From positions 1,312,001-1,376,000 of the forward strand of contig OZ220691.1 in NCBI GenBank assembly GCA_965116475.1: a DNA stretch of 64,000 nt, read 5' to 3'. Each line of letters opens with the position of its first letter. Positions within the stretch are counted from its first letter, which is position 1. The DNA comes from Gemmatimonadota bacterium. Lineage in GTDB: Bacteria > Gemmatimonadota > Gemmatimonadetes > Palauibacterales > Palauibacteraceae. The translations under genes and the position numbers were made by a program. The notes beneath the pieces were generated by a model, which saw only the letters and a list, made by a program, of their open reading frames with translations, ran no database searches and was not told the DNA's origin. Positions 9,866-34,282 of the stretch are shown in pieces.

Positions 9866-10011
9866 CGGACGCTCCTCGAGTCGGCGGATGGTGGGCGGAC
9901 GGTTATCCTCTGAAGATTGACGCTATCGTCCGCGTGGGGCCAGCATGACGGCGCTATACTGCCGGTTCCGCAATCCTCGCCAGCTGTAGCTCCCAAGGCC
10001 GTTGACGACCC

Positions 10012-10086
10012 TCACACTGCCATCGGTCACGCTGCCACCGGTCACGCTGCCACCGGTCACGCTGCCATCGGTCACGCTGCCATCGG
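10012..10086 (-). repeat. 15-bp tandem repeat x5 (CCGRTGGCAGYGTGA) spanning the HNH stop codon
   Basis: Five units here, two at 34225-34254. Confidence 0.9.
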
Positions 10087-11463
10087 CCTGGTCTCGTACT
10101 GTCCCCAGAGGACCCAGAGCGCCCAGTCGAGGTCCAGCGGGTCGCCCATCCAGAGGCTCGTTGCCGTCCAGGGGTCGATCCCCTCCTGCCGGTGCCAGTT
10201 CCCGAGTCCCGCATCGGCGGTTCGGGGCGCCCTGACGTCTTCGCGTGCCGGGGGCACCGCCGGTACCACGCGCCCGTTCGGATCGCGGAAGCGCGCCGCG
10301 CCCGCCTCCTCCATCTCGACGCGCCAACCGCCCTCGTGCACGGCCCTGTGATGGAACCGGCACAGGAGGATCAGGTTGTCGAGCTTCGTCTCGCCCCCCT
10401 CGGACCAGGGGATGGCGTGATGGGCCTGCGTGTAGCGCGAGCCGCAGCCCGGGAAGCGGCAGCCCCCGTCCCGGACGTCGAGCGCCTTGCGCAGCCGCCA
10501 CCCCACCGTCCGCTGGCGGCGGCCCACGTCCAGCACCGAGCCGTCCCGCCCGCGCTTCACCTCCACGGTCTCCGCGTCGCAGGCCAGCCGCCGGGACGTT
10601 CCCGCGGGAACGTGTGAGCCGTCCTCCGTGGCCAGGATTTCGGGGCCGCCGGCCACGGTGTGGACCACCAGTTGCGCCCTCGCCTCGGCACGCTCCTCGA
10701 GCCACGCCCCGAGCGCGTCGTGGCGCCGCTCCGTCGGACTCGGCCGGAGCCCGGGCGTCGGCGTCGGCTGGGGCCCGGGCTGGGGCCCGGGCGTCGGCGG
10801 GGCCGGCTCCCCCGTGGCGGCATCGGCCTCGCGCTCCATGGCGGCGTCGGCCTCGCGCTCCATGGCGCGCTCCTGCCGGTGGAGTTCGTCCACGGTGACA
10901 TCCAGCGTCTCCACGAGCAGGGCGCCCACTTCGGGCATGAGCAGGCCCCGGAGTTCGTACATGCCGTCATCCGTCACCCGGACCGTCAGGTGACGGCGGG
11001 CCGCCATCTCCGACGTGTCGTCCAGCGCCGCCATGGCGGCCTCCGCGCTCTTCGCCGCCCGCACGAAGCGCTCCACCTGGCTCGCCGTGTGGTGGAGGGC
11101 GAACTCGACCAGCCGCGCCTCGTCCTCGGCGGTGACCATGCGCGTCAGCGCCCGGACCTTGGACCAGGAGAGCCGGCCCTTCTCCATCTCGGCGGAGGTC
11201 AGGGGCAGGTCGGCGAGGCGGCGGGCCGCCCGCAGCCGCTCGCGGGCCCCGCCGAGGGAGATGCCGGCGCGCCAGTTCAGCCAGTGGGCGCAGGAGCGCC
11301 ACCCGCTCCAGCGTTCCTCTTCATCGTAGCGGCGCAGCAGCGTCAGGAGCCGATACTGGGCGGCGTCGATATGGGCGCACAGCTCGGCGATCTCGTCACC
11401 CACGGGGTCGCCGGCCAAGGCAGCGGGGTGCGAGGCGGCGGAAGGGTCAGGCGTCTCATGCAT
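10072..11463 (-). CDS. DUF222 (13E12-like) domain HNH endonuclease
   Basis: SCAHWLNWR and LSWSKVRALTR N-terminal region; RDGGCRFPGC...AHH..PW.EGGET.LDNL.LLC.FHH HNH domain. Confidence 0.88.
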   Translation of the reverse strand: MHETPDPSAASHPAALAGDPVGDEIAELCAHIDAAQYRLLTLLRRYDEEERWSGWRSCAHWLNWRAGISLGGARERLRAARRLADLPLTSAEMEKGRLSWSKVRALTRMVTAEDEARLVEFALHHTASQVERFVRAAKSAEAAMAALDDTSEMAARRHLTVRVTDDGMYELRGLLMPEVGALLVETLDVTVDELHRQERAMEREADAAMEREADAATGEPAPPTPGPQPGPQPTPTPGLRPSPTERRHDALGAWLEERAEARAQLVVHTVAGGPEILATEDGSHVPAGTSRRLACDAETVEVKRGRDGSVLDVGRRQRTVGWRLRKALDVRDGGCRFPGCGSRYTQAHHAIPWSEGGETKLDNLILLCRFHHRAVHEGGWRVEMEEAGAARFRDPNGRVVPAVPPAREDVRAPRTADAGLGNWHRQEGIDPWTATSLWMGDPLDLDWALWVLWGQYETRPMAA

Positions 11464-11588
11464 GGCGTTCTCATCCGAATCTCAGGGTTCAAAGGGGGTA
11501 CGCACTCATACCCCGATCTTCGGTAAATGTTCGGGTTTCATCTCAACACGGTCTCAACGGCGGTCTTCAACGGGGGTCTCAGCGTCCG

Positions 11589-11610
11589 GGACGTTCCCGC
11601 GGGAACGTCC
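11589..11610. repeat. 22-bp perfect palindrome GGACGTTCCCGCGGGAACGTCC
   Basis: Core also at 10596-10613, 32737-32758, 33698-33715, 58304-58319. Confidence 0.9.
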
Positions 11611-11660
11611 GCGGCCAGTCAGCCGGTACAGCTAGCCGCTTCGCCGCCCTGTCCGCTGCT

Positions 11661-11800
11661 TCGGCGGGGGAGTAACTTCGGCGCCCCCGTGGGGCACCCG
11701 TGAGGCAATGGAGCCCCACCAGCAGTCTCATCAACGTCACGGCATCGGTTGTGCTGCCGTTTCCGGACCGAACTCGAACGAAGCGGCGATGAGACCATGA
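11661..11800 (+). ncRNA. Possible structured leader resembling yybP-ykoY riboswitch
   Basis: GGGGAGTAAC ... ATCAACGTCACGGC/GCCGT stem ... GAGACC; closing P1 pairing is poor. Confidence 0.3.
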
Positions 11801-11864
11801 GAGACACAACGACAGAAACCCATGTGTCGTCTGACCGGCAGTCCAGCGCCGGTGACCGCTGTCG

Positions 11865-14162
11865 GTGCAAAACCTGATCTCGGTTAGTGCCGGACGGCGG
11901 ACCGCGCTGCTGGCCCTCTTCTTTCTGTCGGGGGTCAGCGGGCTGATCTATCAGATCGCCTGGGTGCGGCAGTCCGTCTTCACGTTCGGGGTCAGCGTCT
12001 ACGCCTACAGCACGGTCATCGGAGCCTACATGATCGGGCTCGCGCTGGGCAGCTACGTGATGGGCAGGCGAATCGACGGGCACGCGCGGCCCCTGGGCAC
12101 GTACGCGGCACTCGAAGTGGGGATCGCGGCGCTCGCGGCGCTGTCGCCGTTCCTGCTCGGGGCCCTGCACGCGATCTACCCGGGACTCAGCAACGCCCTC
12201 CCGGCCGGCGGTTTCTGGCTCACCCTGGGGCGGCTCCTGCTCTCGCTGGCCGTGCTCACGCCGACGACCTTCCTCATCGGGGCCACGCTGCCCGTCATGA
12301 GCCGAATCTACGCGACGCACGGCGGGCGCGTGGGAAGCGACGTGGGGCGACTCTACCTCGTGAACACGGCGGGCGCCGCCCTCGGCTGTGTGCTCACGGG
12401 ACTCGTCTTCCTCCGGTACCTGGGCGCGCGGGAAACCATCTTCCTCGGCGCGGCGATCAATCTCTTCGTTGCAGCGGGGGCGCTCGCGCTCATGCGGCTG
12501 GCGGCCCGGGCCCCGCAGGCGGACGGCGCGGCGAACGGCGACGGGACGGCGAACGGCGACGGCGCGACGGATGCGGCTGTGGCCGCACCGGCTGCCGGAA
12601 CCGCGGCGGCCGCGCTCCCGATCTCTCCCGCGGCGCTGCGCTACGTCGCGATCGCCTACGCCATCTCCGGCTTCATCGCGCTGGGCTACGAGGTGGTGTG
12701 GGCGCGGATCCTATACATCCACTCCTCGCACGCGGCGTACTCGTTCTCGCTCATGCTGACGGTCTTCCTGGCCGGGCTCGCGCTCGGGGGCGCCGGCGGG
12801 AGCTGGGTCCTGCGGCGGAGACGGGCCACGCTGAGGCACTTCGGGGCGATCCAGCTCGCGATCGGACTGCTGGCCGTCCTCATCCTCCACGCCTTCGCGC
12901 GACTCCCCGCGCTCCATCTGGACGACTGGTTCGGCGGTTACACCGTTGCCTACGAGTTCCTCATCGCCTTCGTCACGCTCTTTCCCCCCACCGTCCTTCT
13001 CGGGGCGCTGTTCCCCGTCGTCGGGAGCCTGTACACACGCGAGCGGGCGCGGGCCGTGGGGCTTCGCATCGGCCGCGTGAATGCGTTCAACACGCTGGGA
13101 GCCATCGCGGGCTCGCTCGGCGCGGGGTTCGTGCTCGTGCCGCTCCTCGGACTCCGCAATACGACGGTGGCGCTGGCGGTGCTGAACCTCGCGCTCGGCG
13201 CCGCGGCGCTGCGCTTCGACCGCGGGGGCCGGCGGGCGCTGCGCTTCGCGCCGGCGGGCGCGGTGGTGGCCACGATCGTGGCGGTCGCGATCCTCCCCAC
13301 CGGCTTCTACCTCGGCTCGTACTACACCGAGACCGACCGGCTCATCTTCTACAAGGAGGGCGTGGAGACCACCGTCGCCGTGCTCGAGGTTCCGGAGGAC
13401 AACTACAAGATCTCCTTCGTCAACGGCCGCGACGAAGTGCCGACGGACCGCGCGAGCATGTCGGCGTTCCGGCTGCTCGGACACCTTCCGCCGCTGCTCC
13501 GGCCCGGCGCGCGCAACGCCCTGGTCCTGAGCTTCGGCAACGGGATCGCCACCGGGACGATGAACACGCACGGCATCCCCGTCATCGACGCGGTGGACCT
13601 CTCTCCCGAGATGATCGAGGCGGCCGAGGTCTACGCCGAGGAGAACTACGACGTCCTCGACAGCGACCGGCTGCGGCTGCACGTCGAGGACGGGCGGAAC
13701 TTCCTGCTGCGGGCGGAGGCGTCGTACGACATCATCTCGGTGGACGCGACGCACCCCGCGAACGCGAGTTCATGGGCGCTGTTCACGAGCGAGTTCTATC
13801 AGTTGATCGAGAGCCGCCTCGCGGAGGACGGCGTCTTCATGCAGTGGATCCCGATCCACGGCGTCCGCGAAGATGACTATCGCGACATCCTGCGGACCGT
13901 CTGGGACGTCTTCCCCAACATGGTGCTGTGGTCGACCGGATCGACGCACAGCTACGTCGTCGCCACGCGCGAACCGCTGTCGTCCGTCGTGATGCAGTCG
14001 GTGCTCACGCGCGCCGCCGCCAACCCGATCGTCGTCCGGGACCTCGGATCGCCGGAGACGATCGCCGGCTACGTGGCGATGGCCGAAGGGGACCTGACGA
14101 GCTACATCGGGCGCGGCCCCGTCATCACGGACAACGACGCCTTCTTCATGCCCGCCCGCTAG
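11865..14162 (+). CDS. Fused MFS-like membrane domain / spermidine synthase-like protein
   Basis: FFLSGVSGLIYQIAW and GDVGRLY.VNTAGA-like repeated membrane halves; C-terminal EDGRNFL, YDIISVD, LFTSEFY, TDND. Confidence 0.88.
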   Translation: MQNLISVSAGRRTALLALFFLSGVSGLIYQIAWVRQSVFTFGVSVYAYSTVIGAYMIGLALGSYVMGRRIDGHARPLGTYAALEVGIAALAALSPFLLGALHAIYPGLSNALPAGGFWLTLGRLLLSLAVLTPTTFLIGATLPVMSRIYATHGGRVGSDVGRLYLVNTAGAALGCVLTGLVFLRYLGARETIFLGAAINLFVAAGALALMRLAARAPQADGAANGDGTANGDGATDAAVAAPAAGTAAAALPISPAALRYVAIAYAISGFIALGYEVVWARILYIHSSHAAYSFSLMLTVFLAGLALGGAGGSWVLRRRRATLRHFGAIQLAIGLLAVLILHAFARLPALHLDDWFGGYTVAYEFLIAFVTLFPPTVLLGALFPVVGSLYTRERARAVGLRIGRVNAFNTLGAIAGSLGAGFVLVPLLGLRNTTVALAVLNLALGAAALRFDRGGRRALRFAPAGAVVATIVAVAILPTGFYLGSYYTETDRLIFYKEGVETTVAVLEVPEDNYKISFVNGRDEVPTDRASMSAFRLLGHLPPLLRPGARNALVLSFGNGIATGTMNTHGIPVIDAVDLSPEMIEAAEVYAEENYDVLDSDRLRLHVEDGRNFLLRAEASYDIISVDATHPANASSWALFTSEFYQLIESRLAEDGVFMQWIPIHGVREDDYRDILRTVWDVFPNMVLWSTGSTHSYVVATREPLSSVVMQSVLTRAAANPIVVRDLGSPETIAGYVAMAEGDLTSYIGRGPVITDNDAFFMPAR

Positions 14163-14229
14163 CGTCGGTCCGAGCGGCATGAGTCCTGGACATCGACGGG
14201 CACCGCGCCGATCCCGAGCCGACTTCAGG

Positions 14230-14279
14230 CGCGGTCAGTGACGGCGGAAGCGGCTCCCGCGGCCGGTGAACTGACCGCG
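14230..14279. terminator. GC-rich hairpin between convergent genes
   Basis: CGCGGTCAGT / ACTGACCGCG 10-bp inverted repeat; no U tract. Confidence 0.35.
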
Positions 14280-14307
14280 GGATTCGGAGACGCCACTCCC
14301 GCGCGGG

Positions 14308-15588
14308 CTACGCCCGCAGGGTACTTCGGCAGGCCTCAGCGCGCGCTCCGATCTTCTCTTCCAACGGACCCAGGATCGCGTGGTCGAGGCCTTCCACGCG
14401 GGCGGCCGAGACGATTCCAGGCAACCGGCCGGCAACGTCGACGGCAACGGTCTCGCACAACGCAAACACCTCCGCGGCGGGGAGCCCGACTTCGCCGGCG
14501 AAACGTGCCCAGTGCCTCACCTGGATGTATCCCAGACGCGCTTCGCCGCCGATCTTCGCCGCCAGTTTGAGTCTCGGCTCGTAGTGGCCGGGATAGGGCA
14601 GCACGCTGGCCACATCGTACAGAGGGGCGAGGGACGCCTTCCCGCCGGCCCCAATCAACAGAGAGAAGTTCTTCGCGTGCGCATCGGTCCCACCGATGAT
14701 CCAGTTCAAGGCGAGCGCGCGGACGAAGGTCCGGAGGTCGCGCCCGGGACGGCTGGACCAGGTCCGGATCGCGTGGGCCATGCGGTCGCAGCCCGGACCG
14801 CCGTCGCCCTCGTACTTCGCGGTCGGCGCCAGTCCGAGGGCCTGGCAGAGATCTTCCTGGTGGACTCGCACAATACCGTCCGCGGTGCCGACCCGATCGT
14901 ACCGCTCCACCACGAGCGCCGGCTCTTCGCCGAACCGGCGCACGCTCGAGCGAGCCGCGGGGATTCCGACCGCGCGGGCCAGCGTCAGGCAGAGATGTTC
15001 GTTCTCGCAGTGTCCGGGAAAACCCGGAATCGGAGGTTTCAGAATGTGCGTCGTGGGTGTGCAACCGCGGGGCACTCCCCAACGCCCTTCGCTGAAGTAC
15101 AACGCCGTCTTGGCCTGTGCGCCCGCCAGGCTGAACCGGCCGGAGTCACCGGGGAGACGCCACGCGCTCCCATCCTCGTTCAGCACGCGCAGGCGTGCGC
15201 CGACCTGCTCCTCCGTCAGCCAGTCGACCTCCCGCGTTCGCGGGCCAAGCAGGCGGTCGACGCGGTCGGGTGCCGCGAACTGGACTCCGCCCGAGCAGTC
15301 CTCGCCCGTTGCCCCCAGCAGCGAGAATGCGCTTAGCGCGGAGACTTGAAAGCGTCTTGCCCATCTGGCGAGAACATTCTCGTTGTCGGGGAGGAGTCCC
15401 CACAGCCACGGTTCGATGACGTCGTGGCCGTATTCGGCGCCGACGAGAGACATCGACAGGGAAAGCGGGTACGCCCCCGGCGCCTGCCGCCACGCTTCAT
15501 CGTATGAGAAGGCCAGCCGCCCGCGCGCGTGGCGCGTGACGTGGCCCATCACCTCCCCGTTCGCCACCGCGATGAGGCGTTCGGTCAC
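14308..15588 (-). CDS. hipA: HipA family kinase toxin
   Basis: LWGLLPDN, SLAGAQAK, THILKP, VERYDR, HQEDLCQALG, DAHAKNFS, LAPLYD. Confidence 0.93.
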   Translation of the reverse strand: MTERLIAVANGEVMGHVTRHARGRLAFSYDEAWRQAPGAYPLSLSMSLVGAEYGHDVIEPWLWGLLPDNENVLARWARRFQVSALSAFSLLGATGEDCSGGVQFAAPDRVDRLLGPRTREVDWLTEEQVGARLRVLNEDGSAWRLPGDSGRFSLAGAQAKTALYFSEGRWGVPRGCTPTTHILKPPIPGFPGHCENEHLCLTLARAVGIPAARSSVRRFGEEPALVVERYDRVGTADGIVRVHQEDLCQALGLAPTAKYEGDGGPGCDRMAHAIRTWSSRPGRDLRTFVRALALNWIIGGTDAHAKNFSLLIGAGGKASLAPLYDVASVLPYPGHYEPRLKLAAKIGGEARLGYIQVRHWARFAGEVGLPAAEVFALCETVAVDVAGRLPGIVSAARVEGLDHAILGPLEEKIGARAEACRSTLRA

Positions 15589-15881
15589 GGCGCCGGGTCT
15601 TCGTGGGCCCTGACGACCGCCTCAACGTCGGGCACGGCAATCCGGACGCGGGAACCCGACGGCTCCGGGATACCCTCGCCGTGGACCGACAGCGACAGGT
15701 CGACTGCGGCAAGCACCTGAAACGCCTTGCCCAGTTCGGCTCGCGGCTTGCCGGCTTCGATGGCCACGATCCACTGTCGACCCACGCCGGCCGCTCGTGC
15801 CAGATCCGCCTGCGTCATGCCTCGGGCCTGCCTGGCCCGGCGGATCAGGAGGCCAAGTTCGAGGGGAGTGCGAAACTGCAA
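15585..15881 (-). CDS. hipB: HipB-like XRE HTH antitoxin
   Basis: IRRARQARGMTQADLARAAGVGRQWIVAIEAG; 4-bp overlap with hipA. Confidence 0.85.
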   Translation of the reverse strand: MQFRTPLELGLLIRRARQARGMTQADLARAAGVGRQWIVAIEAGKPRAELGKAFQVLAAVDLSLSVHGEGIPEPSGSRVRIAVPDVEAVVRAHEDPAP

Positions 15882-15928
15882 TGTTCACCGTCCAGCCACG
15901 AGTCATGATCAACGAAGTCGACCACGAA

Positions 15929-16000
15929 TGTAGTCGTTCGGCGACATTGACGCGATGTCGTCGAACGGGCACAATTGCCGCATGTCCGCGAACGGCGACA
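15929..16000. promoter_or_regulatory. Three 18-bp palindromic operators TGT-N3-CGWWCG-N3-ACA upstream of hipBA
   Basis: 15929-15946, 15956-15973, 15983-16000; exact 27-bp spacing. Confidence 0.75.
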
Positions 16001-16004
16001 GAGT

Positions 16005-16688
16005 TCAGTACGACACGCCGGTGGCCTGGCACAGCCAGCGCTGGAACGGGGCGGCGGTGCGGCACAGGTCGGTGAAGCGGTCGAGGAAACCGTCCGACGT
16101 CAGGTCGTCTTCGCCCAGTTGCACGACCGCGATGAAGTCCTTGCGCCGCAGGTCCTCGATCAGCGGGTGATCCACGCTGAATCCCTGCGGGGCCCGGACG
16201 AGCGAGTCGCCCGAGAGCTCGAACGTCCCACGAAAACCGGCGCTGCGCGACGCCCGCCTCCAGGCCTGCGGATCCTCGTCGATGGACTCGCGGATCTGCC
16301 GGAGCGCCGGCCCGCCGGGGCGCCAGGTGCCGCAGCCCGCGAAGCAGTGCCCGGGCTGGATGTGCAGGTAGAAGCCGGGGGCGTGGGCGTCCCTGCCCGC
16401 CTCGTGCCGGAACTGGATGCCGGTGTGGGTCTTGTACGGACTCTTGTCCCGGGAGAAACGCGTGTCGCGGTAGATCCGGAAGAGCGAGCCGCCGTTCGCC
16501 CTCGGGTCGGCGCGAAAGTGGGGGCTGATCTCCTCGAGAGGGCCGGAGAAATCCGAGATGAAGCGGAGCGCCGGCTCTTTGACGTCCGCCTCGTAGCGCG
16601 GCTTGTTGTCGAGAAACCACTCGCGGCGGTTGTTGGCGGCCAACTCGCTCAGGAAGCTGAAGGTGCGGGGCGTGAAGTAGGCGGTCAT
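16005..16688 (-). CDS. DUF2461 / TIGR02453 family protein
   Basis: FLSELAANNRREWF, SLFRIYRDTRFSRDKSPYKTH. Confidence 0.9.
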   Translation of the reverse strand: MTAYFTPRTFSFLSELAANNRREWFLDNKPRYEADVKEPALRFISDFSGPLEEISPHFRADPRANGGSLFRIYRDTRFSRDKSPYKTHTGIQFRHEAGRDAHAPGFYLHIQPGHCFAGCGTWRPGGPALRQIRESIDEDPQAWRRASRSAGFRGTFELSGDSLVRAPQGFSVDHPLIEDLRRKDFIAVVQLGEDDLTSDGFLDRFTDLCRTAAPFQRWLCQATGVSY

Positions 16689-16816
16689 GGCAAGGTGGCT
16701 CGTCGGCTGGAGAGACAGGTATGATGAGCGGGGCCGATACCGGGGCCGATACCTATGACGTGGGCCCGGAGCCGGCAAGCGGAAGCAGGCAAACAGGAAG
16801 CAAGCAGAGGAACGCC

Positions 16817-17281
16817 ATGACGCGCACCGAACTCGGCCGCACCATCGACGCTCCGGTCGGAGCGGTTTTTTCCACCGTCGCCGACGTTTCCAACTTCTCC
16901 AAGGCCGTGCCGCACATCGAGCACGTCGAGTTCCTGTCGGAGGCAAGGACGGGCGTCGGCGCCCGCTTCCGGGAGACGCGGCTCATGGGGAGCCGGAGGG
17001 CGACCACGGAGCTGGAGGTGACCGAATACGTTCAGGACGAGCGAGTCCGCTTCGTGTCGGACGCGGGCGGCACGGTCTGGGACACGACCTTCACCGTCGA
17101 GCCGGACCCGGATGGCGGCGGGACGCGGCTGCTCATGGTGATGGAGGCGCGGCCCCACAAGCTTCTTGCCAGACTCACCACGCCGCTCATGAGCCGGGTG
17201 ATCGCGAAGGCGATCGCGGCGGACCTCGATGCCGTGAAGGCCTACACCGAGGCGTCCGGAGGGCTCGACTACCCCATCTGA
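16817..17281 (+). CDS. SRPBCC family protein
   Basis: IDAPVGAVFSTVAD, GVGARFRETR, C-terminal helix; GAGG upstream. Confidence 0.8.
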   Translation: MTRTELGRTIDAPVGAVFSTVADVSNFSKAVPHIEHVEFLSEARTGVGARFRETRLMGSRRATTELEVTEYVQDERVRFVSDAGGTVWDTTFTVEPDPDGGGTRLLMVMEARPHKLLARLTTPLMSRVIAKAIAADLDAVKAYTEASGGLDYPI

Positions 17282-17292
17282 GCAATTGCGCG
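17265..17292. promoter_or_regulatory. 28-bp box TCGACTACCCCATYTGAGYAATTGCGCG (copy a)
   Basis: 26/28 identical to reverse complement of 27228-27255. Confidence 0.6.
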
Positions 17293-17680
17293 GGTTCAGC
17301 GACTGGCTGAGCCTGTCCGCATGCAACCGTTGAGCCAGAAGACCGCCATTGCGAACGGATCGGCGCCGACCTTCGCCGCTTCCGGCAGGATGTCGCCGGA
17401 AGGGTCAGGCTAGGCAACGTGCCCGGGAAATGGGGAAACACCTGCGCGAGGCCCGGATGCACGGCGATCACCGTAAAGCCACCTCAGACGCCGGACTCCA
17501 CAAGCTCCGGTCGCACCCAGCCCCTGAAGGCCTGTCCCCGTTGCGTCGTGGAAGCCGCCCGCCGAATCGACGTTGAGCCTCCGTCCTGGGCTGTAGATGC
17601 GTTGGCCGCGCAGCCCGGATACCGGACTTCACGCCGCGACTCGCAAAGGGAGCGCGGCGAGTCCGCGGATCACCGTTGAC

Positions 17681-17696
17681 TACCCCATTTGGGGTA
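17681..17696. promoter_or_regulatory. Palindrome TACCCCA-TT-TGGGGTA upstream of LuxR-type regulator
   Basis: 7-2-7 inverted repeat ~110 bp before ATG 17809; related to the 28-bp box. Confidence 0.6.
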
Positions 17697-17808
17697 AGAT
17701 GCTGGCGCCTGCGTGCGTGGTCGTGCCACATGATTTGTGGCCGTATCACATGATTCAAGGCCACGATCTCCTGGACACACACCAAACAAAGCGGGCAGTC
17801 GAAACCAC

Positions 17809-18969: not shown

Positions 18970-19086
18970 TTCCCTGGGGACGGCCTGATCGTGCGTGTCA
19001 CTACAGCGGGGCGGTGCATGGTTGACACTTGCCGCCGCGATCTCTCGGCCGGGTGATCGCCCGTGAGTAGCGGCCGCCAAGTGGAC

Positions 19087-22846: not shown

Positions 22847-22855
22847 CGGTAGACG

Positions 22856-23346: not shown

Positions 23347-23368
23347 TTCGAGCCCAACTCCCCCAAAA

Positions 23369-23433: not shown

Positions 23434-23447
23434 AACATGAAGAGGGC

Positions 23448-23500: not shown

Positions 23501-23513
23501 AGAAGGCTGCGCC

Positions 23514-24163: not shown

Positions 24164-24171
24164 CCGCGCGA

Positions 24172-24480
24172 TTCGGAGGCGCTTCGACGACGGAGGACCT
24201 CCTCCGCTTCGCCCACGCGCACCTCGAGCCGGGACTGTTCAGCCGGGAGACGCTGGACCTCGTATGGACTTCCCAGCGCACGGCGTCCGGCGAGGAGATC
24301 GGAGTGGGGATCGGCTGGCGCCTCATGCCGCCCTCGCGGGCGGGCGGTCGCCGAGCGGTCGGGCACGCGGGCGGCGCGATCGGCGGCAACGCGCTGCTCA
24401 TCATCTACCCGGACGACGGCGTGGCCGTGGCCGTCGCCGCGAACATCGCGGGCATCGGCTATCCGCAGGGCCGCGAACGG
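24172..24480 (+). pseudogene. C-terminal remnant of beta-lactamase-like serine hydrolase
   Basis: Frame reads GGASTTEDLLRFAHA...GIGW...VGHAGGAIGGNALLIIYPDDGVAVAVAAN; no N-terminus or SxxK. Confidence 0.7.
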
Positions 24481-24620
24481 CCCGGGCGCTTTTCAACCGT
24501 CTCAGCCACGACCCGGCATCACCGCGCCCGCCCCGGCGTGGGCAGGGCTTCGAGCCACCGTGTGCGAGCTCCGTTCCTCCGCACGTTCAACCAGGAGGTA
24601 AAGGGGTAAAGAAGTAGGAA

Positions 24621-25493: not shown

Positions 25494-25504
25494 CTTGAGC
25501 GACT

Positions 25505-27133: not shown

Positions 27134-27227
27134 GGTACCTCCTCCGCAACCTTCGTCTGGTTCCGCGGAGCCCAGGTCCTCCGTGGCGACCACCGTCGAA
27201 CAGAAACATCGACGAACGGTCGGAGGG

Positions 27228-27255
27228 CGCGCAATTACTCAAATGGGGTAGTCGA
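27228..27255. promoter_or_regulatory. 28-bp box (copy d) upstream of MORN-FGE operon
   Basis: cgcgcaattactcaaatggggtagtcga, ~95 bp from the start codon at 27133. Confidence 0.65.
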
Positions 27256-27318
27256 AGGCGGGGGAGGAGGTGATATAGTCAATGGCGGCCGAAGGAGTGA
27301 CACATTCGGCGGGGGGGA

Positions 27319-27391
27319 TGGAGCCGATCGGATTCGAACCGACGACCTCCTGCTTGCAAAGCAGGCGCTCTCCCAACTGAGCTACGGCCCC
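27319..27391 (-). tRNA. tRNA-Ala (TGC), CCA not encoded
   Basis: GGGGCCGTAGCTCAGTTGGGAGAGCGCCTGCTTTGCAAGCAGGAGGTCGTCGGTTCGAATCCGATCGGCTCCA; cloverleaf, G3-U70. Confidence 0.97.
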
Positions 27392-27572
27392 TCGAGGCGC
27401 GCGCGACACGGCGGCGTCCCGCGCGTGTGAAGGATGGGGCGAGCGCCCTCCGCTCGCCAGTTTCGGCGCCACCCCGTTTCGGTCGAGGCTGGCGGGAGTT
27501 GCGACGCCTCAAGCTCGGCGCCTACGCTCCCTTGAGGACTTGAGCAGCTCAACTCCCGGAAGGCCGGTGGCC

Positions 27573-28160
27573 ATGGCGGAATCTCGCAGGACGTTCCTGA
27601 AGCAGTCTGCCGCGACGGTGGCCGCCGTTTCCCTCACCGGTTGCGCTCGCGATGCCGCCGGCGGGCGCGCGACGGAGACCGACGGGGCCGAGACGCTGCG
27701 GGCCGTTGCCGACGTCGTTCTCCCGGACGAACTCGGCGAGGACGGCCGGGGACGCGCGGTGCGCGCCTTCGAGCGCTGGTCCGAGGCGCTGGAACCTGTG
27801 GCCGAACTGAGTCATCCGTATCTCGTCCCCGAGATCCGGTACTCGGGCCCGGATCCGAGGCCGGGATGGGCGGCGCAACTGGAGGGCCTCGAGAAGGAGT
27901 GCGAGAGCCGCCACGGCGTGTCTCTCTCCGATCTCGACGTGTCCGCCCGCCGAGAACTCCTCGCGCGGCCGCTCGCGGACGCCGGGCCAGGCCTTGGGGC
28001 GCCGCAGAATGCGGACCACGTGGCGCTGGCCCTGATGGCCCACTTCTTCGGCTCCGCGATCGCGACGGATCTCTGCTACGGGCGGGCGATTCGGAGGGAG
28101 CTCTGCCGCTCGATCGAGGGGGCCGAGGACGAACCCGCGCCGCTGGGAGCCGCACCGTGA
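27573..28160 (+). CDS. Tat-exported partner subunit (gluconate 2-dehydrogenase subunit 3-like)
   Basis: SRRTFLK twin-arginine motif; overlaps GMC gene start. Confidence 0.7.
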   Translation: MAESRRTFLKQSAATVAAVSLTGCARDAAGGRATETDGAETLRAVADVVLPDELGEDGRGRAVRAFERWSEALEPVAELSHPYLVPEIRYSGPDPRPGWAAQLEGLEKECESRHGVSLSDLDVSARRELLARPLADAGPGLGAPQNADHVALALMAHFFGSAIATDLCYGRAIRRELCRSIEGAEDEPAPLGAAP

Positions 28161-29788
28161 GCCGCCCACGCAGCCCCGCGGTCGGGCGGGCGGCGCGACG
28201 CGTGGTCGAGAGCGACGTCTGCATCATCGGCGGCGGGATCACGGCCGCCATGGTGGCCGAGCGGCTCGCCGAGCGGACCGGCGCCTCGATCACCGTCGTC
28301 GAGGCCGGCGGACGGACGGCATCTCTCGAGGAACGGTCGGACACCCGGGCGCGGATGCTGGCCTACGGCGAGAACCCCTGGCCCAACGATGATATCCGCG
28401 GCCAGACGGGCACGGGCGCCATGTACAATTCGATGGTCGTGGGCGGCGCGGCGATGCACTGGGGCGGCGCGGTCCCGCGCTTTTCCCCGGAGGACTTCCG
28501 CCTGCGGTCGCTGTACGGGGTCGCGTCCGACTGGCCCATCTCCTTCGACGACATCGAGCCGTACTACCAGGAGGCGGAGGAGCGCATCGGCGTGGCGGGC
28601 GAACAGGGTCCCCCGGAGTACGACCCCCGTTCGAAGCCCTACCCCATGCCGCCGCTCCCGCTCTCGTACAGCCTCGCGCGCATGCGCGAATGGACGGAGA
28701 AGACGGACATCCCCTTCTGGACGCAGCCCTGGGCGCGCAACACGGAGCCGTACCAGGGGCGGAACGTCTGCCGCCGCTGCGACACCTGCTCGGTCTGTCC
28801 CACGGGAGCCAAGTACACGCCCGACTTCGCCTTCGACCGGCTGTTGGCGGACGGGCGCATCGACCTCGTCACCCGCACGCTCGTCCGGCGCCTGAGCCTG
28901 GAGCCCGGTTCGGACCGGATCGCCGTCGCGGAAGCCGTCGACCGGGACGCGCCCGACGAGCCCGTCGAGTTCCGCGCGGGTACGTTCGTGATCGCCTCCG
29001 GCCACGCGTGGAGTTCCCACCTCCTCCTGCTCTCGGCGAACAGCCGCTTCCCGGACGGCCTCGCCAACCGCACCGGAAACGTGGGGCGGTACATGACGGG
29101 GCACTGGTACCTCAGCGGCTTCATCAACCTGCCGCTGCGGCTCTATCCCGGCATGTTCGTCTACAACAGCCTGCTGTCCCGCCGCTTCGCCAGCCCGGGA
29201 CCGCTGGACCGCTACGTGCGCCACGACCTGCGCCTGTGGGAGTCGAACGTCGGCCGCGCCCCGAGGCTCAAGGGCGAAGACGGCCAGCTTCTGTGGGGCG
29301 ACGAGATCATGGCCGACTGGAGGGCCCGCACGGAGTCCGAGTCCACCGCGCGGGTCCGCGCCTACTACGACCTGCTCCCGGACCGCGACAGCCGCCTCAC
29401 CCTCGACCCCGGAAAGACGAACGAACTGGGCGACCCGATGCCCCGGATCGACTACCGTCCCGCGCAGGAGAGCATCGACCTCCAGGACCACACGGTCGAG
29501 ACGATCTCGGGCCGTTTTGAGGAACTCGCGCGCGCGGCCGGAGGTTCCATGAGGAGCATCGGGCGGCCGTCCGAGCTGTGGGAGCACCCGGGCGGCGGCT
29601 GCCGGATGGGCGACGATCCGGCCTCGAGCGTCGTGGACCGCTGGGGCCGCACCCACGACCACGAGAACCTCTTCGTGGTGGGCGCGCCGGCCCTCGTCTC
29701 CGGCGGCTGCGCGAACGGGACGCTCACCTTCTGCGCCCTCTCCCTCATGTCCGCCGAAGAGATGCAGAGAGAACTCCCCTCGGCCTGA
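28157..29788 (+). CDS. GMC family oxidoreductase
   Basis: DVCIIGGGITA, VGGAAMHWGG, CxxCxxCxxCPTGAK, HPGGGCRMG, THDHENLFV. Confidence 0.9.
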   Translation: MSRPRSPAVGRAARRVVESDVCIIGGGITAAMVAERLAERTGASITVVEAGGRTASLEERSDTRARMLAYGENPWPNDDIRGQTGTGAMYNSMVVGGAAMHWGGAVPRFSPEDFRLRSLYGVASDWPISFDDIEPYYQEAEERIGVAGEQGPPEYDPRSKPYPMPPLPLSYSLARMREWTEKTDIPFWTQPWARNTEPYQGRNVCRRCDTCSVCPTGAKYTPDFAFDRLLADGRIDLVTRTLVRRLSLEPGSDRIAVAEAVDRDAPDEPVEFRAGTFVIASGHAWSSHLLLLSANSRFPDGLANRTGNVGRYMTGHWYLSGFINLPLRLYPGMFVYNSLLSRRFASPGPLDRYVRHDLRLWESNVGRAPRLKGEDGQLLWGDEIMADWRARTESESTARVRAYYDLLPDRDSRLTLDPGKTNELGDPMPRIDYRPAQESIDLQDHTVETISGRFEELARAAGGSMRSIGRPSELWEHPGGGCRMGDDPASSVVDRWGRTHDHENLFVVGAPALVSGGCANGTLTFCALSLMSAEEMQRELPSA

Positions 29789-29806
29789 CCCGGACGGCTG
29801 CACCCG

Positions 29807-31099
29807 TCACCGCAGGTCGAGGCGATGTGCTCTCCCGATCCGCCGGGCATCCCGTTCCTCGACACCCGCTTCGGACGCGAAACGCGGCCAGTTGGCGACC
29901 GCAGCGAGTACCCGGTCGGCGATGCGGCTCGCGGCGGGAGTCCTGAGCCCGGAAGTCTCCGCGAATCTCAGCAGGTCGGCGCGTTCGAAGCCATCGCGCT
30001 TGCCGGCCACGCTCATCTGGTGTCGGCCTGTCCATAGGCCCTGCGGGTTGTAGGCGTACGCCACGTCGTATGCCGGCGACAGTCGCCACGTCCCGCTGCG
30101 GTCCATCAGGAACGCGATGTTCTTCACGTGATCGTCCTGATTCCGCGCAACGACGTTGAAAACCGCCCGGCGATACTGTTCCTCGACCACCGCCATGCCG
30201 AGCCCGAGCTTCCGGATCGTCTCCACCGCCTGCTCGTACGCATACGCGTCCGGCAGGTTGTAGTCGAAGTGCCGCAGCGCCGCGAGCGACTGCATGTGGA
30301 TCTTCCGCCCCTCCGCGTCGCGGTCGAACCGGCGCGTCATGAAGTGGCTCCGCCCGCCTTCGTGATGCAGGCGGCATTCCGACATCTCGATCCCGGCTTC
30401 GCGGGCCATCAGGTGATAGGCGTACTCGATCCGCCCGTAGCCGAGCGGATCCGCGAGTTCCCGGTCGCGGTTGTCGGCGACGCCGTCGAATTTCAGGATC
30501 CAGTGCTCGAAGCCGGCCTCCGCGTCCAGCTGGCCGGACCGGAACTCGCGCGTCTCCGGATTCCAGGCGAGTACCGCCTTGGCCCGTGCGCCGCCCGCGG
30601 AGGTGCCCACGCGGAGGATGTCCTCGAGCGCTCCGCCGTCTCCGTTGCGTTCGAGCCTGCCCGCCAGTCGGCCCCGTTCGTCGAGAACCCGGTTGGCGAG
30701 ATCGACCAGTGGCGCGATCTCAACCGCGCCTCCGTTGCCGCGTCGTAGCGCCGGTTCGAACTCCAGCGCCCCGACGCCGCGCCTGCCGATGTAGCAGAGC
30801 CGGTCCACCGGATTGAAGTCCTCGAGACGGCGTCCGGTCTCCGCCAGCCAAACATCGATCAGCCGGTCACCGAAACTGTCCGGCAACGCGTCCGCAAGCA
30901 GGCCGGGCAAGCCCTTGAACGCCTCCCCGAGGCCGGGGAACGCATACGGAGTTTCGCGCACGGGCATCGCCATAGGGGAAACCTCGATGCCGGCTGACAA
31001 GAACGCGGGATCGTACTGGAACACGCCGATTCCCCGCCCGGCCTCCCACGACACCGCGCCGATCTGGCGGCCCCACAGGTTCACGCTGGCGTCAGTCAT
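29807..31099 (-). CDS. hipA: HipA family kinase toxin
   Basis: LADALPD, GTSAGGARAK, WILKFDG, TRRFDR, NQDDHVKN, LSPAYD. Confidence 0.92.
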   Translation of the reverse strand: MTDASVNLWGRQIGAVSWEAGRGIGVFQYDPAFLSAGIEVSPMAMPVRETPYAFPGLGEAFKGLPGLLADALPDSFGDRLIDVWLAETGRRLEDFNPVDRLCYIGRRGVGALEFEPALRRGNGGAVEIAPLVDLANRVLDERGRLAGRLERNGDGGALEDILRVGTSAGGARAKAVLAWNPETREFRSGQLDAEAGFEHWILKFDGVADNRDRELADPLGYGRIEYAYHLMAREAGIEMSECRLHHEGGRSHFMTRRFDRDAEGRKIHMQSLAALRHFDYNLPDAYAYEQAVETIRKLGLGMAVVEEQYRRAVFNVVARNQDDHVKNIAFLMDRSGTWRLSPAYDVAYAYNPQGLWTGRHQMSVAGKRDGFERADLLRFAETSGLRTPAASRIADRVLAAVANWPRFASEAGVEERDARRIGRAHRLDLR

Positions 31100-31455
31100 T
31101 CAGATTCGTCGGCCCACGACCAGGGACCTTCGGGCGGCGCGCCCTTCCTAGGGCGCGCGCGCTGCCGCTCCCTGCCGCCGGAGTCCACGCGCTCAATAGG
31201 TCGGACCTCTCGCGGTGGCACCGCGCTCAACAGACCCTCCCCCAAGCCAAGAGCAATTGCGACGCGCAGCAGGCTGTCCAGACCAGACGGTTGGCCGGCC
31301 TCGATGCGGCGCAGCGTGCGCAGTCCTACTCCCGCGTCTTCGGCCAGCGTCCGCTGCGTCACGTTCCTCGCAAGGCGCAGCTTCGCGAGGCGACGTCCCA
31401 TTTCGGTCCGCAGCGCACGGGAAGTCAGATTTTCATGCGTCACGCCAGCAGCCAA
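31096..31455 (-). CDS. XRE HTH antitoxin
   Basis: RLARNVTQRTLAEDAGVGLRTLRRIEAG; 4-bp overlap with hipA; start uncertain. Confidence 0.85.
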   Translation of the reverse strand: MAAGVTHENLTSRALRTEMGRRLAKLRLARNVTQRTLAEDAGVGLRTLRRIEAGQPSGLDSLLRVAIALGLGEGLLSAVPPREVRPIERVDSGGRERQRARPRKGAPPEGPWSWADESE

Positions 31456-31528
31456 GATCAGCCCCTATACTCCGCAAACTTCCGTTAGTCCGAGTCTCAA
31501 GTTGCGGCTAGATCGATGGGATGTCAAG

Positions 31529-31585
31529 AGGCCATATATTGCCTTCTAACAACTTCTAATAAACTTATAAGGCCACATATCGCCT
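31529..31585. promoter_or_regulatory. Two AGGC-N8-GCCT operators upstream of second hipBA
   Basis: aggccatatattgcct 31529-31544 and aggccacatatcgcct 31570-31585. Confidence 0.7.
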
Positions 31586-31656
31586 CTTATTTTTGAAACA
31601 AACCCAACGGTGTCGTGATGGAGAAACCCTATCTTGGAAAGTAGCAGGAGCGTCGG

Positions 31657-32634
31657 CTACGGCCGCTTTTCTCCGGCGGTCAGGGGGAAGCGGAGGTAGT
31701 TCTCGCGGGGCGGGAGGCTGCAGACGGAGTGCGGGGTGAAGGCGCAGGGCGCGTTGTAGGCCCGGTTGAAGTCGATCGTCGTCCAGCCGTCGTCATCCGG
31801 GAAGGGGGCGCGCATGTAGCGGCCCGCCTGGTAGGTGTCGGTCACGGCGGTCGAATCCCACAGGCTGATGAAGTAGGAGCGGCTCGACGCGCCGGCGAAG
31901 GCCATGAGGCGGTGCTCCGCCCCGTCGACGCGGAAGACGAGATCTCCGGGCGCGGTGTTCTCGAGCGTCCCGCCCCTCACGTCGGCCAGCGAGACCGTGC
32001 GCGGCTCCGGATAGGGCTCGAAGCGCGCCGTCACGCGCCACTCGTTCGTGATCGGGAAGTACTCGGGAAGCTCGAACGCATCGAGGCGCGGGGCGTCCGT
32101 ATCCCAGACCCGGAGCCACAGCCTCTCCGTTCCCGGCTCGGCGTGAACCCGCATCCCGAGCGACCCCAGCGCCAAGCGGACCGTCTCCTCGCTCCGGTCG
32201 TCCGGGAGGGGCATCGGTTCCGTGACGGGGTCGCCCGCGGCGCCGGACATCTGGTCTCTCAGGCGCAGGCCGCTCCCGGCTTCGGGGACGAGACGCACAG
32301 TCCCATCCTCGAGGTACAGCGTACCGGCCAGAAGCGGCGCGTCCTCCTCCGGCAGGACGATGGCCGCGGACGGATCGGACCCGAAGGTGTTGGCGCCTTC
32401 CCGCAGTTCGAAGAGCCCGTCCCAGCTGATGACGCCCGCGTTGGGGTTCGCGAGGCTGCGCCGCCGCCCGTCGCGCCACTCCTCATGCTCGGCCGCCAGC
32501 ACCCCGGACTCCACCGGCGGCGGATCCGGCCACCCGTCGCCCGCGCAGCCAACCGCTGCGGCGCAGAGCAGCGCCGCCGCCAACCCGACAACGGCGTTCC
32601 ATCCGGTATCCGTCGACCTCCCCGCCGTGCTCAT
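31657..32634 (-). CDS. DUF1684 domain lipoprotein
   Basis: TY.AGRY, IDFNRAYNAPCAF...CSLPP.EN.L...AGEK. Confidence 0.88.
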   Translation of the reverse strand: MSTAGRSTDTGWNAVVGLAAALLCAAAVGCAGDGWPDPPPVESGVLAAEHEEWRDGRRRSLANPNAGVISWDGLFELREGANTFGSDPSAAIVLPEEDAPLLAGTLYLEDGTVRLVPEAGSGLRLRDQMSGAAGDPVTEPMPLPDDRSEETVRLALGSLGMRVHAEPGTERLWLRVWDTDAPRLDAFELPEYFPITNEWRVTARFEPYPEPRTVSLADVRGGTLENTAPGDLVFRVDGAEHRLMAFAGASSRSYFISLWDSTAVTDTYQAGRYMRAPFPDDDGWTTIDFNRAYNAPCAFTPHSVCSLPPRENYLRFPLTAGEKRP

Positions 32635-32717
32635 GTGGGCAGCATGCCCCGGCAACCCGGCTCGTGCAACCCGCCGGCGGGTGGAACCTTCACCGGATCG
32701 ACGCCCGCCGGGCGGGA

Positions 32718-34282
32718 GTACCGGCTGACTGGCCGCGGACGTTCCCGCGGGAACGTCCCGGACGCTGAGATCCCCGTTGAGACCCCCGTTGAAGACCGCC
32801 GTTGAGACCGTGTTGAGATGAAACCCGAACATTTACCGAAGATCGGGGTATGAGTGCGTACCCCCTTTGAACCCTGAGATTCGGATGAGAACGCCATGCC
32901 TGAGACGCCTGACCCTTCCGCCGACCCGACCGCCAACTCGAACGCTGCCGCCTCGCACCCCGCTGCCTTGGCCGGCGACCCCGTGGGCGACGAGATCGCC
33001 GAGCTGTGCGCCCACATCGACGCCGCCCAGTATCGGCTCCTGACGCTGCTGCGCCGCTACGATGAGGAGGAACGCTGGAGCGGGTGGCGCTCCTGCGCCC
33101 ACTGGCTGAACTGGCGCACCGGGATCTCCCTCGGCGGGGCCCGCGAGCGACTGCGGGCGGCCCGCCGCCTCGCCGACCTGCCGCTGACCTCCGCCGAGAT
33201 GGAGAAGGGGCGGCTCTCCTGGTCCAAGGTCCGGGCGCTCACGCGCATGGCCACGGCCGAGAACGAGGCGCGGCTGGTCGAGTTCGCCCTCCACCACACG
33301 GCGAGCCAGGTGGAGCGCTTCGTGCGGGCGGCGAAGAGCGCGGAGGCCGCCATGGCGGCGCCGGACGGGACGTCGGAGATGGCGGCCCGCCGTCACCTGA
33401 CGGTCCGAATGACGGCCGACGGCATGTACGAGGTTCGGGGGCTGCTCATGCCCGAGGTGGGCGCCCTGCTCGTGGAGACGCTGGACGTCACCGTGGACGA
33501 ACTCCACCGGCAGGAGTGCGCCATGGAGCGCGAGGCCGATGCGCCCGCGCCCGCGCCGGCACTCCGGCCGAGTCCGACGGAGCGGCGCCACGACGCGCTC
33601 GGGGCGTGGCTCGAGGAGCGCGCCGAGGCGAGGGCGCAACTGGTGGTCCACACCGTGGCCGGCGGCCCCGAGATCCTGGCCACGGAGGACGGCTCACACG
33701 TTCCCGCGGGAACGTCCCGGCGGCTGGCCTGCGATGCGGAGACCGTGGAGGTGAAGCGCGGGCGGGACGGCTCGGTGCTGGACGTGGGCCGCCGCCAGCG
33801 GACCGTGGGGTGGCGGCTGCGCAAGGCGCTCGACGTCAGGGACGGCGGCTGCCGCTTTCCGGGCTGCGGCTCGCGCTACACGCAGGCCCACCACGCCATC
33901 CCGTGGTCCGAGGGGGGCGAGACGAAGCTCGACAACCTGATCCTCCTGTGCCGGTTCCATCACAGGGCCGTGCACGAGGGCGGCTGGCGGGTCGAGATGG
34001 GGGAGGCTGGCGCGGCGCGCTTCCGCGATCCGGCCGGGCGCGTGGTACCGGCGGTGCCCCCGGTACGCGAGGACGTCAGGGCGCCCCGAACCGCCGATGC
34101 GGGACTCGGGAACTGGCACCGGCAGGAGGGGATCGATCCCTGGACGGCGACCAGCCTCTGGATGGGCGACCCGCTCGACCTCGACTGGGCCCTCTGGGTC
34201 CTCTGGGGACAGTACGAGACCAGGCCGATGGCAGCGTGACCGATGGCAGCGTGAGGGTCGCCAACGTCCTTGGCAGCTACAG
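32718..34282 (+). mobile_element. Dispersed DUF222/HNH repeat element, copy 2
   Basis: Similarity to copy 1 starts at gtaccggctgact and ends near agctacag. Confidence 0.7.
32896..34239 (+). CDS. DUF222 (13E12-like) domain HNH endonuclease
   Basis: Near-identical paralogue of 10072-11463. Confidence 0.88.
   Translation: MPETPDPSADPTANSNAAASHPAALAGDPVGDEIAELCAHIDAAQYRLLTLLRRYDEEERWSGWRSCAHWLNWRTGISLGGARERLRAARRLADLPLTSAEMEKGRLSWSKVRALTRMATAENEARLVEFALHHTASQVERFVRAAKSAEAAMAAPDGTSEMAARRHLTVRMTADGMYEVRGLLMPEVGALLVETLDVTVDELHRQECAMEREADAPAPAPALRPSPTERRHDALGAWLEERAEARAQLVVHTVAGGPEILATEDGSHVPAGTSRRLACDAETVEVKRGRDGSVLDVGRRQRTVGWRLRKALDVRDGGCRFPGCGSRYTQAHHAIPWSEGGETKLDNLILLCRFHHRAVHEGGWRVEMGEAGAARFRDPAGRVVPAVPPVREDVRAPRTADAGLGNWHRQEGIDPWTATSLWMGDPLDLDWALWVLWGQYETRPMAA

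Follow-up and report, generated by a model that had tools for sequence, protein, structure and literature searches.

A dispersed DUF222-HNH cassette of the REP13E12 kind in a Gemmatimonadota genome, with a ParB-like domain model and a LexA-type box in its leader

Cassette copies in the window and in the genus

The window analysed here is a stretch of 64,000 nucleotides from a Gemmatimonadota bacterium (contig OZ220691.1, positions 1,312,001 to 1,376,000), and its dispersed repeats are two copies of a cassette of about 1.6 kb, in which a non-coding leader precedes a single gene for a protein with a DUF222 and an HNH domain. The source genome is a single contig of 3.62 Mb (69% G+C, 96% complete) and the nearest named relatives of the protein are found in Candidatus Palauibacter, also of the Gemmatimonadota. 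Both open reading frames (ORFs) match Pfam DUF222 (PF02720; E 3e-23 and 8e-26, 82.9 and 91.6 bits against a cut-off of 24.4) and Pfam HNH (PF01844; E 3e-8, 34 bits against a cut-off of 21.4). An earlier reading of the letters alone, referred to here as the sequence-only reading, had described both units and assigned them to the REP13E12 kind; the two copies were found where it had placed them, together with their ORFs, domain matches and leader parts, and the assignment agrees with the presence of both Pfam domains above their cut-offs. Pairwise alignment shows scattered substitutions and two indels between the ORFs of copy A and copy B, while their leaders are identical from the left boundary to the ATG save for an extra 12-nt unit in copy B. 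Coordinates of all the parts are presented in Table 1.

A genome-wide search identified seven ORF-bearing copies and three fragments or derivatives. Five of the copies are full and 89-91% identical with gaps counted, one (genome 1533276-1534799) is without most of its leader, and one at genome 2634672-2636017 is 76% identical. The incomplete forms comprise a fragment of 138 bp, a solo left end (genome 592270-592400) and a deletion derivative of 115 bp (genome 239030-239145) which keeps both ends. Relatives of the DUF222-HNH protein are present in 26 of the 36 genus genomes (E <= 1e-10), and in draft genomes the copies often lie at contig ends. The unit is thus dispersed well beyond the two copies from which this had been claimed. 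Among six paralogues the synonymous divergence (dS) ranges from 0.083 to 0.168 and dN/dS from 0.07 to 0.29, and therefore the proteins have been kept functional.

A clean empty site could be identified for copy B. Its flanks lie 17-22 nt apart in five relatives (G022, G043, G007, G003 and G017), and alignment to the empty site shows that 17 nt of an A+T-rich repeat region gave way to the cassette and that nothing was duplicated. Contigs of a DNA-like run (X3) also bridge the element, joining position 32688 to 34346/34351. At least one insertion has therefore taken place, as expected of the mobile unit that had been suspected, and the reported lack of a target duplication is upheld at this one clean site. 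No known transposase domain could be found by Pfam, which detects DUF222 and HNH alone and no DDE, HUH, serine or tyrosine recombinase.

The sequence-only reading had seen no consistent terminal inverted repeat. This has to be revised, since imperfect inverted ends of 19 bp exist and are eroded in the window copies. The full left end, preserved in the solo copy at genome 592270, starts GCTAGCTGTAGATGCCACG, and six right ends are its reverse complement with 2-4 mismatches over 19 nt. Genome-wide, the 19-mer occurs at <=3 mismatches only at cassette ends. Erosion has affected most left ends. In copy A 10 nt of this end survive and in copy B nothing of it, and the inverted repeat was missed before for that reason. 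For one of the copies, the G006 orthologue retains the left end that G000 lost, so the erosion came later. These ends lie outside the leader, and the proposal that the leader itself is a DNA end is not supported. An insertion sequence with the same ends that mobilises the cassette in trans was also considered and rejected, as the 19-mer is confined to the cassette ends at <=3 mismatches.

Protein, palindrome and leader

The N-terminal part of the protein models as a helix-turn-helix DNA-binding fold of the ParB/Noc type. AlphaFold assigned a predicted local distance difference test score (pLDDT) above 90 to residues 30-150, with a mean of 65 over the whole model. In a VIA-align search the 12 best rows were all DNA-binding domains of ParB, Noc or Spo0J (Z 8.1-10.7, root-mean-square deviation 2.3-4.6 A), with 93-103 residues aligned within model residues 37-161, and KorB is also listed (Z 6.5). 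For residues 301-388 the HNH domains of IscB come next, with the HNH domains of McrA-type proteins and Cas9 lower, and the Cys, His and Asn positions of the HNH domain, its zinc and catalytic residues, are invariant in an alignment of 48 sequences. Homodimer prediction gave a score of 0.76, the best of 3 controls being 0.05; the runs agreed in at least 44% of contacts with a partner pLDDT of at least 60. This mark is reached by 20 of 30 proteins solved as same-chain pairs and by 1 of 23 solved as single chains. The predicted homodimer supports binding; for a 14-16-bp palindrome as the site it is indirect evidence, as are the matching palindromes of leader and ORF described below. The ParB_N domain (PF02195) is not matched in either window protein by Pfam, and its only match in the genome is in a separate parB. 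PADLOC and NCBIfam scans returned weak HNH-level rows and nothing else. A recognition-helix residue that tracks the palindrome type was looked for as well; the one candidate (Asn versus Gly/Thr) occurs in two related sequences, too few to count.

The 22-bp palindrome of the leader had been noted as a leader feature but it is not specific to the leader: it recurs in-frame in every ORF copy of the genome, where it encodes V-P-A-G-T, and at 60 solo sites. The genome has 76 instances of its 14-nt core GTTCCCGCGGGAAC (16 in cassettes or fragments, the rest solo), against 8 for the next commonest 14-nt palindrome. The leader palindrome of copy B folds into a hairpin of -22 kcal/mol (z -2.7). The core is found 7-76 times in 24 of the 36 genus genomes, the reversed control being 0 everywhere. 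Within the ORF it uses rare codons, namely GTT (4.5% of Val) and GGA (13% of Gly). V-x-A-x-T encoded by a perfect 16-nt palindrome, of four types, is seen in 28 of 31 genus copies; two of the remaining copies are half-and-half hybrids and one (L033) is unreadable at that site. The upstream palindrome is also perfect in 16 copies, and in 15 of these the two cores, upstream and in-ORF, are the same, across three types (13 CCCGCGGG, 1 TCCGCGGA and 1 TCAGCTGA). The change from V-S-A-E-T, usual in the family, to V-P-A-G-T is a complementary double change which preserves the palindrome. Across phyla, 80 loci from several phyla were collected, of which 15 were dropped because the V-x-A-x-T pattern was not matched; the perfect 14-mer is present in 44 of the 65 others, its centre occurring in three complementary variants, and 20 of the remaining 21 deviate by no more than two mismatches.

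The palindrome resembles the parS sites of the genome itself, TGTTTCACGTGAAACA and CGTTTCACGTGAAACG, which adjoin the single parB gene; CGTTTCACGTGAAACG differs from one cassette palindrome type in the central two bases alone. This parB lies at genome 1767665-1767934 and its parS sites at 1769086 and 1769155, from which the origin can be put at about 1.77 Mb and the terminus close to coordinate 0. The stretch from 2.97 Mb to 0.19 Mb has only 2 of the 76 palindromes, so the family thins around the terminus. Noc-binding sites in Bacillus have a similar distribution. Outside the genus, five genomes have 5-23 matching palindromes each, often paired 66 nt apart as inside the ORFs; since they are so few there, the large solo family is a speciality of this clade.

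Several arrangements of the palindromes may be recorded here. Doublets 50-75 nt apart surround a small CCAGTTGCCCAACTGG-type hairpin, in a REPIN-like manner, at genome 1407586, 1597513, 2760489 and 2892967, and the sequence just upstream of the leader palindrome of the cassette (ACTGGCCGCGGAC) resembles the inner flank of these doublets. In G001, which has other palindrome types, two types stand directly side by side or four copies follow every 41 nt, and these clusters look like binding-site arrays.

The leader is far better conserved than the synonymous sites of the gene. None of 131 leader positions differs between copies A and B, whereas their dS of 0.127 predicts about 16 differences; this result and the count of copies remove the objection named beforehand to the sequence-only reading, namely that there are just two copies, syntenic in relatives, with a leader no better conserved than synonymous sites. 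Five copies have the 83-nt 3' part of the leader, and comparison among them gives 30 differing positions out of 830. In a set of 34 leaders from 19 genomes the elements that never vary are GTTGA, CCGAA, ACCGAA and the block before the ATG, and both CCGAA motifs of CCGAA-N6-CCGAA are invariant in 34 of 34. In the copy at genome 1533276-1534830 the TTGAGA units, LexA-type box and hairpin are gone. Its orthologues in G016, G003 and G022 keep all three, and the copy itself retains an intact ORF of 488 residues.

The invariant core, TTCGG-N6-TTCGG on the other strand, is probably a LexA operator, because the same repeat stands upstream of lexA, recA and the dnaE2 operon as well as other repair genes. 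The genome has 25 exact instances of the motif and one of its reversed control. The hits with an A/T-rich spacer number 12, of which 6 are cassette leaders, 4 precede other genes and 2 are unexplained. The four non-cassette boxes stand before an imuB-like ORF followed by a dnaE2-type DNA polymerase III alpha gene, a GIY-YIG gene whose match falls short of the Pfam cut-off, a member of the DinB family and a radical-SAM gene that weakly matches spore photoproduct lyase. Upstream of lexA there are four TTCGG spaced 10-11 nt apart, and upstream of recA the TTCGG-N6-TTCGG repeat has one mismatch. At the level of the motif, the box of the leader is thus the direct repeat which stands before lexA, recA and imuB-like/dnaE2. 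Its CTTC-N7-GTTC form is the direct-repeat class of Alphaproteobacteria and Acidobacteria. Candidate LexA boxes of this lineage are located at genome 651.8 kb (lexA), 859.6 kb (recA), 955464, 1034160, 2774352 and 3202468. The palindrome was also considered as a LexA box and rejected, as it is not found upstream of lexA or recA.

Between the palindrome and this box lie the TTGAGA units, whose number varies between copies from two to about seven with a spacer that is also variable, and which resemble a -35-proximal promoter or activator element. Genome-wide there are five instances of the doublet GTTGAGA-N4-GTTGA(G/T)A and none of its reversed control. Three of the five are in cassettes; the other two (genome 809269 and 3184063) precede a ComM/YifB-type gene and a Uma2 endonuclease gene. 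The doublet may be a promoter or activator site shared by DNA-related genes.

Depth sums of contigs from a sponge metatranscriptome (X1) are 42-327 over the ORF, 132 in the last leader bin (32826-32896), 5-16 over the palindrome/TTGAGA part and 0-27 in the flanks. Run X3 covers the leader evenly (155-288) and run X2 has almost no coverage. The X1 depths would fit a transcript start near the LexA-type box. We do not count them as evidence, since they come from one study, from contigs only and from a multi-copy cassette.

The leader had also been proposed to be an associated RNA. In this explanation it would give rise to an RNA, structured or acting as a guide, which serves the HNH protein as the omega RNA serves IscB, and the conservation of the non-coding 5' region speaks for it. 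The HNH domain is closest in sequence to that of IscB (E 8.6e-5), the 3' leader can fold modestly better than shuffled sequences (-19.1 kcal/mol, z -1.8), and a long-range helix CCGAAG/CTTCGG is formable in 85% of cells. Yet Rfam gives no family for the leader at gathering score (one row at E 0.82 in a permissive scan) and RNAalifold finds 0 consensus pairs in the 34 leaders. The one plausible helix is without covariation: two of its pairs are invariant, three depart only through unpaired cells, and in the one pair where both sides change, 22 of 33 cells are unpaired. The hairpin region, moreover, is replaced by longer, unrelated hairpins in relatives. No RuvC domain is found in the protein by Pfam, the NCBIfam model of IscB reaches 21.9 bits where 175 are required and covers the HNH part only, and the invariant motifs of the leader recur as DNA operators before SOS genes. 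We consider an RNA partner very improbable; the leader is best read as a control region that acts at the DNA level, rather than as an RNA partner or a transposon end.

Table 1. Coordinates of the cassette copies, their parts and selected palindromes (positions in the window unless a genome or contig is named).
Feature	Position	Strand	Remark
Copy A, whole cassette	9979..11636	-	From right inverted end to left-end remnant
Copy A, right inverted end	9979..9998	-	
Copy A, 15-bp tandem, x5	10012..10086	-	Across the stop codon
Copy A, ORF, DUF222 and HNH	10072..11463	-	463 residues
Copy A, in-frame palindrome	10596..10613	.	
Copy A, 5'-UTR (untranslated region) hairpin	11495..11514	-	GGGGTATG..CGTACCCC, present in both copies
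Copy A, LexA-type box	11518..11534	-	
Copy A, tandem TTGAGA-type units	11541..11582	-	Four, one fewer than copy B
Copy A, leader palindrome	11589..11610	.	
Copy A, left-inverted-end remnant	11627..11636	-	10 nt, GCTAGCTGTA
Copy B, whole cassette	32689..34281	+	Bounded by the empty site in relatives
Copy B, leader palindrome	32737..32758	.	GGACGTTCCCGCGGGAACGTCC, resembles parS; may be the operator to which the ParB-like domain of the cassette binds
Copy B, tandem 11-13-bp units	32765..32818	+	CTGAGA/TTGAGA/TTGAAGA, five, -35-like
Copy B, LexA-type box	32825..32841	+	CCGAAC-ATTTA-CCGAAG (reverse complement TTCGG-N6-TTCGG)
Copy B, hairpin in presumed 5' UTR	32845..32864	+	GGGGTATGAGTGCGTACCCC; longer, different hairpins in relatives
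Copy B, conserved block before start codon	32872..32895	+	CCCTGAGATTCGGATGAGAACGCC; presumed ribosome-binding region
Copy B, ORF	32896..34239	+	447 residues; modelled ParB/Noc-like DNA-binding domain ~37-152, middle region, HNH nuclease ~301-388
Copy B, in-frame palindrome	33698..33715	.	ACGTTCCCGCGGGAACGT, encodes V-P-A-G-T
Copy B, 15-bp tandem, x2	34225..34254	+	CCGATGGCAGCGTGA; stop codon inside first unit
Copy B, right inverted end	34268..34282	+	CCTTGGCAGCTACAG
Solo palindrome	58305..58318	.	Genome 1370305; between two convergent genes
G001 palindrome arrays	G001:C120:365-406, G001:C51:181-208, G001:C204:1128-1264		

A proposed SOS-controlled nuclease cassette and its alternatives

We consider it probable (roughly 60%) that these repeats are REP13E12-type cassettes, in which a two-part nuclease gene with a ParB-like domain is combined with its own, SOS-controlled region and short inverted ends. 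From left to right, the leader would then hold a parS-like palindrome, a -35-like run of TTGAGA units, a LexA operator overlapping the promoter, a variable 5'-UTR hairpin and a ribosome-binding region. LexA would repress the gene and DNA damage would turn it on. The protein, a ParB/Noc-type helix-turn-helix domain joined to an HNH nuclease and probably a dimer, would bind the 16-22-bp palindrome upstream of the promoter and the identical in-frame site, with autoregulation, a cis site or both as the outcome. KorB autoregulates from an upstream operator, and it seems plausible to take this as an analogue for the cassette. The nuclease would cut DNA nearby, and repair of the break with recombination might duplicate or move the cassette at low frequency.

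Several results weigh against this reading. With respect to the protein, the model as a whole is mediocre, Foldseek alone gives nothing at E <= 0.001 (best ParB/Noc chain E 0.13), and the hhalign comparison with the genome's own ParB falls short of significance (probability 2.4%, pairwise E 0.019), the stretch that it aligns being DUF222 residues 75-127 with the helix-turn-helix of ParB; a Z near 10 for a helical domain can also reflect a common arrangement. A sigma-70 promoter and terminator scan of 32500-33000 found nothing and the -10 box could not be placed. For copy A no clean empty site was found, its entire intergenic stretch of 2002 nt differing from the 213-237 nt present in G003 and G002. 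None was obtained either for the copy at genome 2730819-2732411, where relatives have other DNA or a larger deletion, so the insertion signature comes from copy B alone. The copy B insertion site is without a palindrome, and palindromes are therefore not the insertion target. Synonymous sites have diverged by about 10% among the paralogues, and several of these copies keep their synteny between species. The remaining results of this kind concern the solo palindromes and are given below.

These divergences bear on how much the cassette moves. The 76% copy follows the same neighbouring gene in G000 and nine other genomes and is therefore old, and at least two younger copies are common to sister species. 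It follows from the divergence and the synteny that movement is rare, but it is real. It might be argued that there is no mobile element at all and that we see an old paralogous family, which duplication and homologous recombination have dispersed and a host function, such as damage-induced genome rearrangement or defence, has maintained. The dS of about 0.1 between paralogues with low dN/dS, the synteny of several copies and the erosion of the ends in most of them would suit such a family, and a passage in PMC13157036 describes the 13E12 genes of M. tuberculosis as marking inversion breakpoints. Against it, the gain of copy B in unrelated DNA is clean and its boundary is defined, inverted ends are common to copies in unrelated flanks, the deletion derivative retains both ends, and copies pile up at the contig ends of draft genomes. 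We regard a purely paralogous family as improbable.

The solo palindromes raise a different alternative, in which the palindrome is a bidirectional terminator-like or REP-like hairpin of the host, carried or mimicked by the cassette and not bound by the protein; in the leader it would insulate the cassette from read-through. Intergenic positions are occupied by 44 of the 60 solo palindromes as compared to 527 of 2000 random points, and 24 of the 60 as compared to 42 of 2000 lie within 60 nt after a stop codon; these counts are approximate because gene positions were taken from a crude ORF caller based on third-position G+C (GC3), which covered 76% of the genome. A host hairpin or terminator role fits this location of the solo copies mainly just after stop codons, and the hairpin is a stable one. 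Four genus genomes have 11-36 palindromes with no DUF222 by protein or Pfam search. The solo site at 58305 is perfect in 12 of 16 fully aligned orthologous intergenic sites, where the surrounding spacer is full of indels and substitutions, and two genomes keep this site without a DUF222 gene. In the old syntenic copy, the leader palindrome lies tens of bases past the stop codon of the neighbouring gene. It is thus possible that the palindrome is also, or instead, a terminator-like hairpin of the host.

What a host hairpin leaves unexplained is the perfect in-frame palindrome in every ORF, in spite of rare codons and two amino-acid changes, as well as the different palindromes of other lineages, matched from leader to ORF, and the complementary centre variants across phyla. 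A terminator within the element's own ORF would moreover be self-defeating, and the protein has, in its model, a ParB-like domain. We hold it rather unlikely that a host hairpin is the whole explanation. The SOS-controlled cassette could be extended to the family at large: DUF222-HNH proteins may be ParB-derived site-specific nucleases which read a parS-like palindrome present in their own gene and again in their leader, and in this genus the palindrome would have changed, forcing the Ser-to-Pro and Glu-to-Gly replacements in the protein, and have spread to about 60 intergenic sites. The nuclease might then relate to these sites as RAYT does to REP elements, or the sites might form a Noc-like, chromosome-wide landing pattern that thins at the terminus. 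We offer this extension tentatively and think it doubtful as yet.

If the palindrome-nuclease link is true, it would explain the dominant repeat family of the genus. The constraint at the DNA level is unusual in any case, as a palindrome resembling a binding site prevails over codon usage and, within a conserved protein motif, even over the identity of amino acids. The locus also yields a model which can be tested cheaply, that of a LexA-controlled nuclease with a ParB-type domain reading a palindrome in its own gene.

Known systems and surroundings of the copies

The closest known system is REP13E12 of Mycobacterium tuberculosis, the original description of which is reportedly that of Gordon et al. 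1999. The mycobacterial repeats contain a phage attachment site. Both families share the DUF222 architecture of Pfam (mostly with HNH), occur as several diverged copies in unrelated flanks and have a link to LexA and the SOS response, which is seen here by motif. For M. tuberculosis, most members of whose family are reported to be under LexA/SOS control, the link is by chromatin immunoprecipitation (ChIP), and a passage in PMC3381160 gives six LexA ChIP peaks at 13E12 genes. The mycobacterial family belongs to the Actinobacteria whereas the present cassette is found in Gemmatimonadota, and as compared to REP13E12 the cassette shows 19-bp inverted ends, a documented empty site, a pair of leader and in-ORF palindromes and about 60 solo palindromes. 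With at least 7534 proteins at E <= 1e-5 among 8000 scored candidates, the DUF222/13E12 family is a very large one. No mechanism is assigned to it in the searchable literature, in which we also found no published description of a ParB-like domain, a palindrome in its own gene or such a reading of the leader for DUF222-HNH.

The ParB-parS, Noc and KorB systems resemble the cassette in the modelled N-terminal fold, in a 16-bp palindrome close to the genome's own parS and in the predicted dimer. The cassette protein differs from them in being without the ParB_N/CTPase domain and fused to an HNH nuclease, and one candidate site lies inside its own coding sequence; the genome has its true parB apart from the cassettes, as a single gene adjoined by two canonical parS sites. 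As with REP/RAYT (REPINs), there is one dominant short palindrome, mostly intergenic near gene ends and sometimes in doublets, and copies of it flank one nuclease gene. No RAYT/Y1 (HUH) transposase (PF01797) is matched in the single-contig genome; the linked gene is, unlike a RAYT, a multi-copy HNH nuclease, and the palindromes persist in four relatives without the gene. IscB/OMEGA (HEARO) shares an HNH domain of similar sequence and fold and a conserved non-coding stretch beside the gene, but the cassette is without RuvC, an omega RNA or an RNA structure supported by Rfam, RNAalifold or covariation. With insertion sequences the cassette has in common the short inverted ends, several copies and a miniature derivative with both ends; it differs in having no known transposase domain and, at the one site, no target duplication and 17 bp of target lost.

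The block at 34282-35691, directly after copy B, consists of A+T-rich repeat units (GTTAGCCGACGCGTAACGAA... and CTTAGCAGCG..GGGCGTAAGGAAAAG) followed by an ORF of 389 residues (34472-35641), Fic-like by eye. As this block is missing from many relatives, the spot after copy B is a variable region. On the other side of the window, a tandem 12-nt repeat (CCGAAGCAGTTA) lies at 8459-8490 (genome 1320459-1320490) in a short gap between convergent genes, just upstream of the neighbour of copy A. A tRNA gene on the minus strand (27319-27391) is the window's only Rfam match at gathering score.

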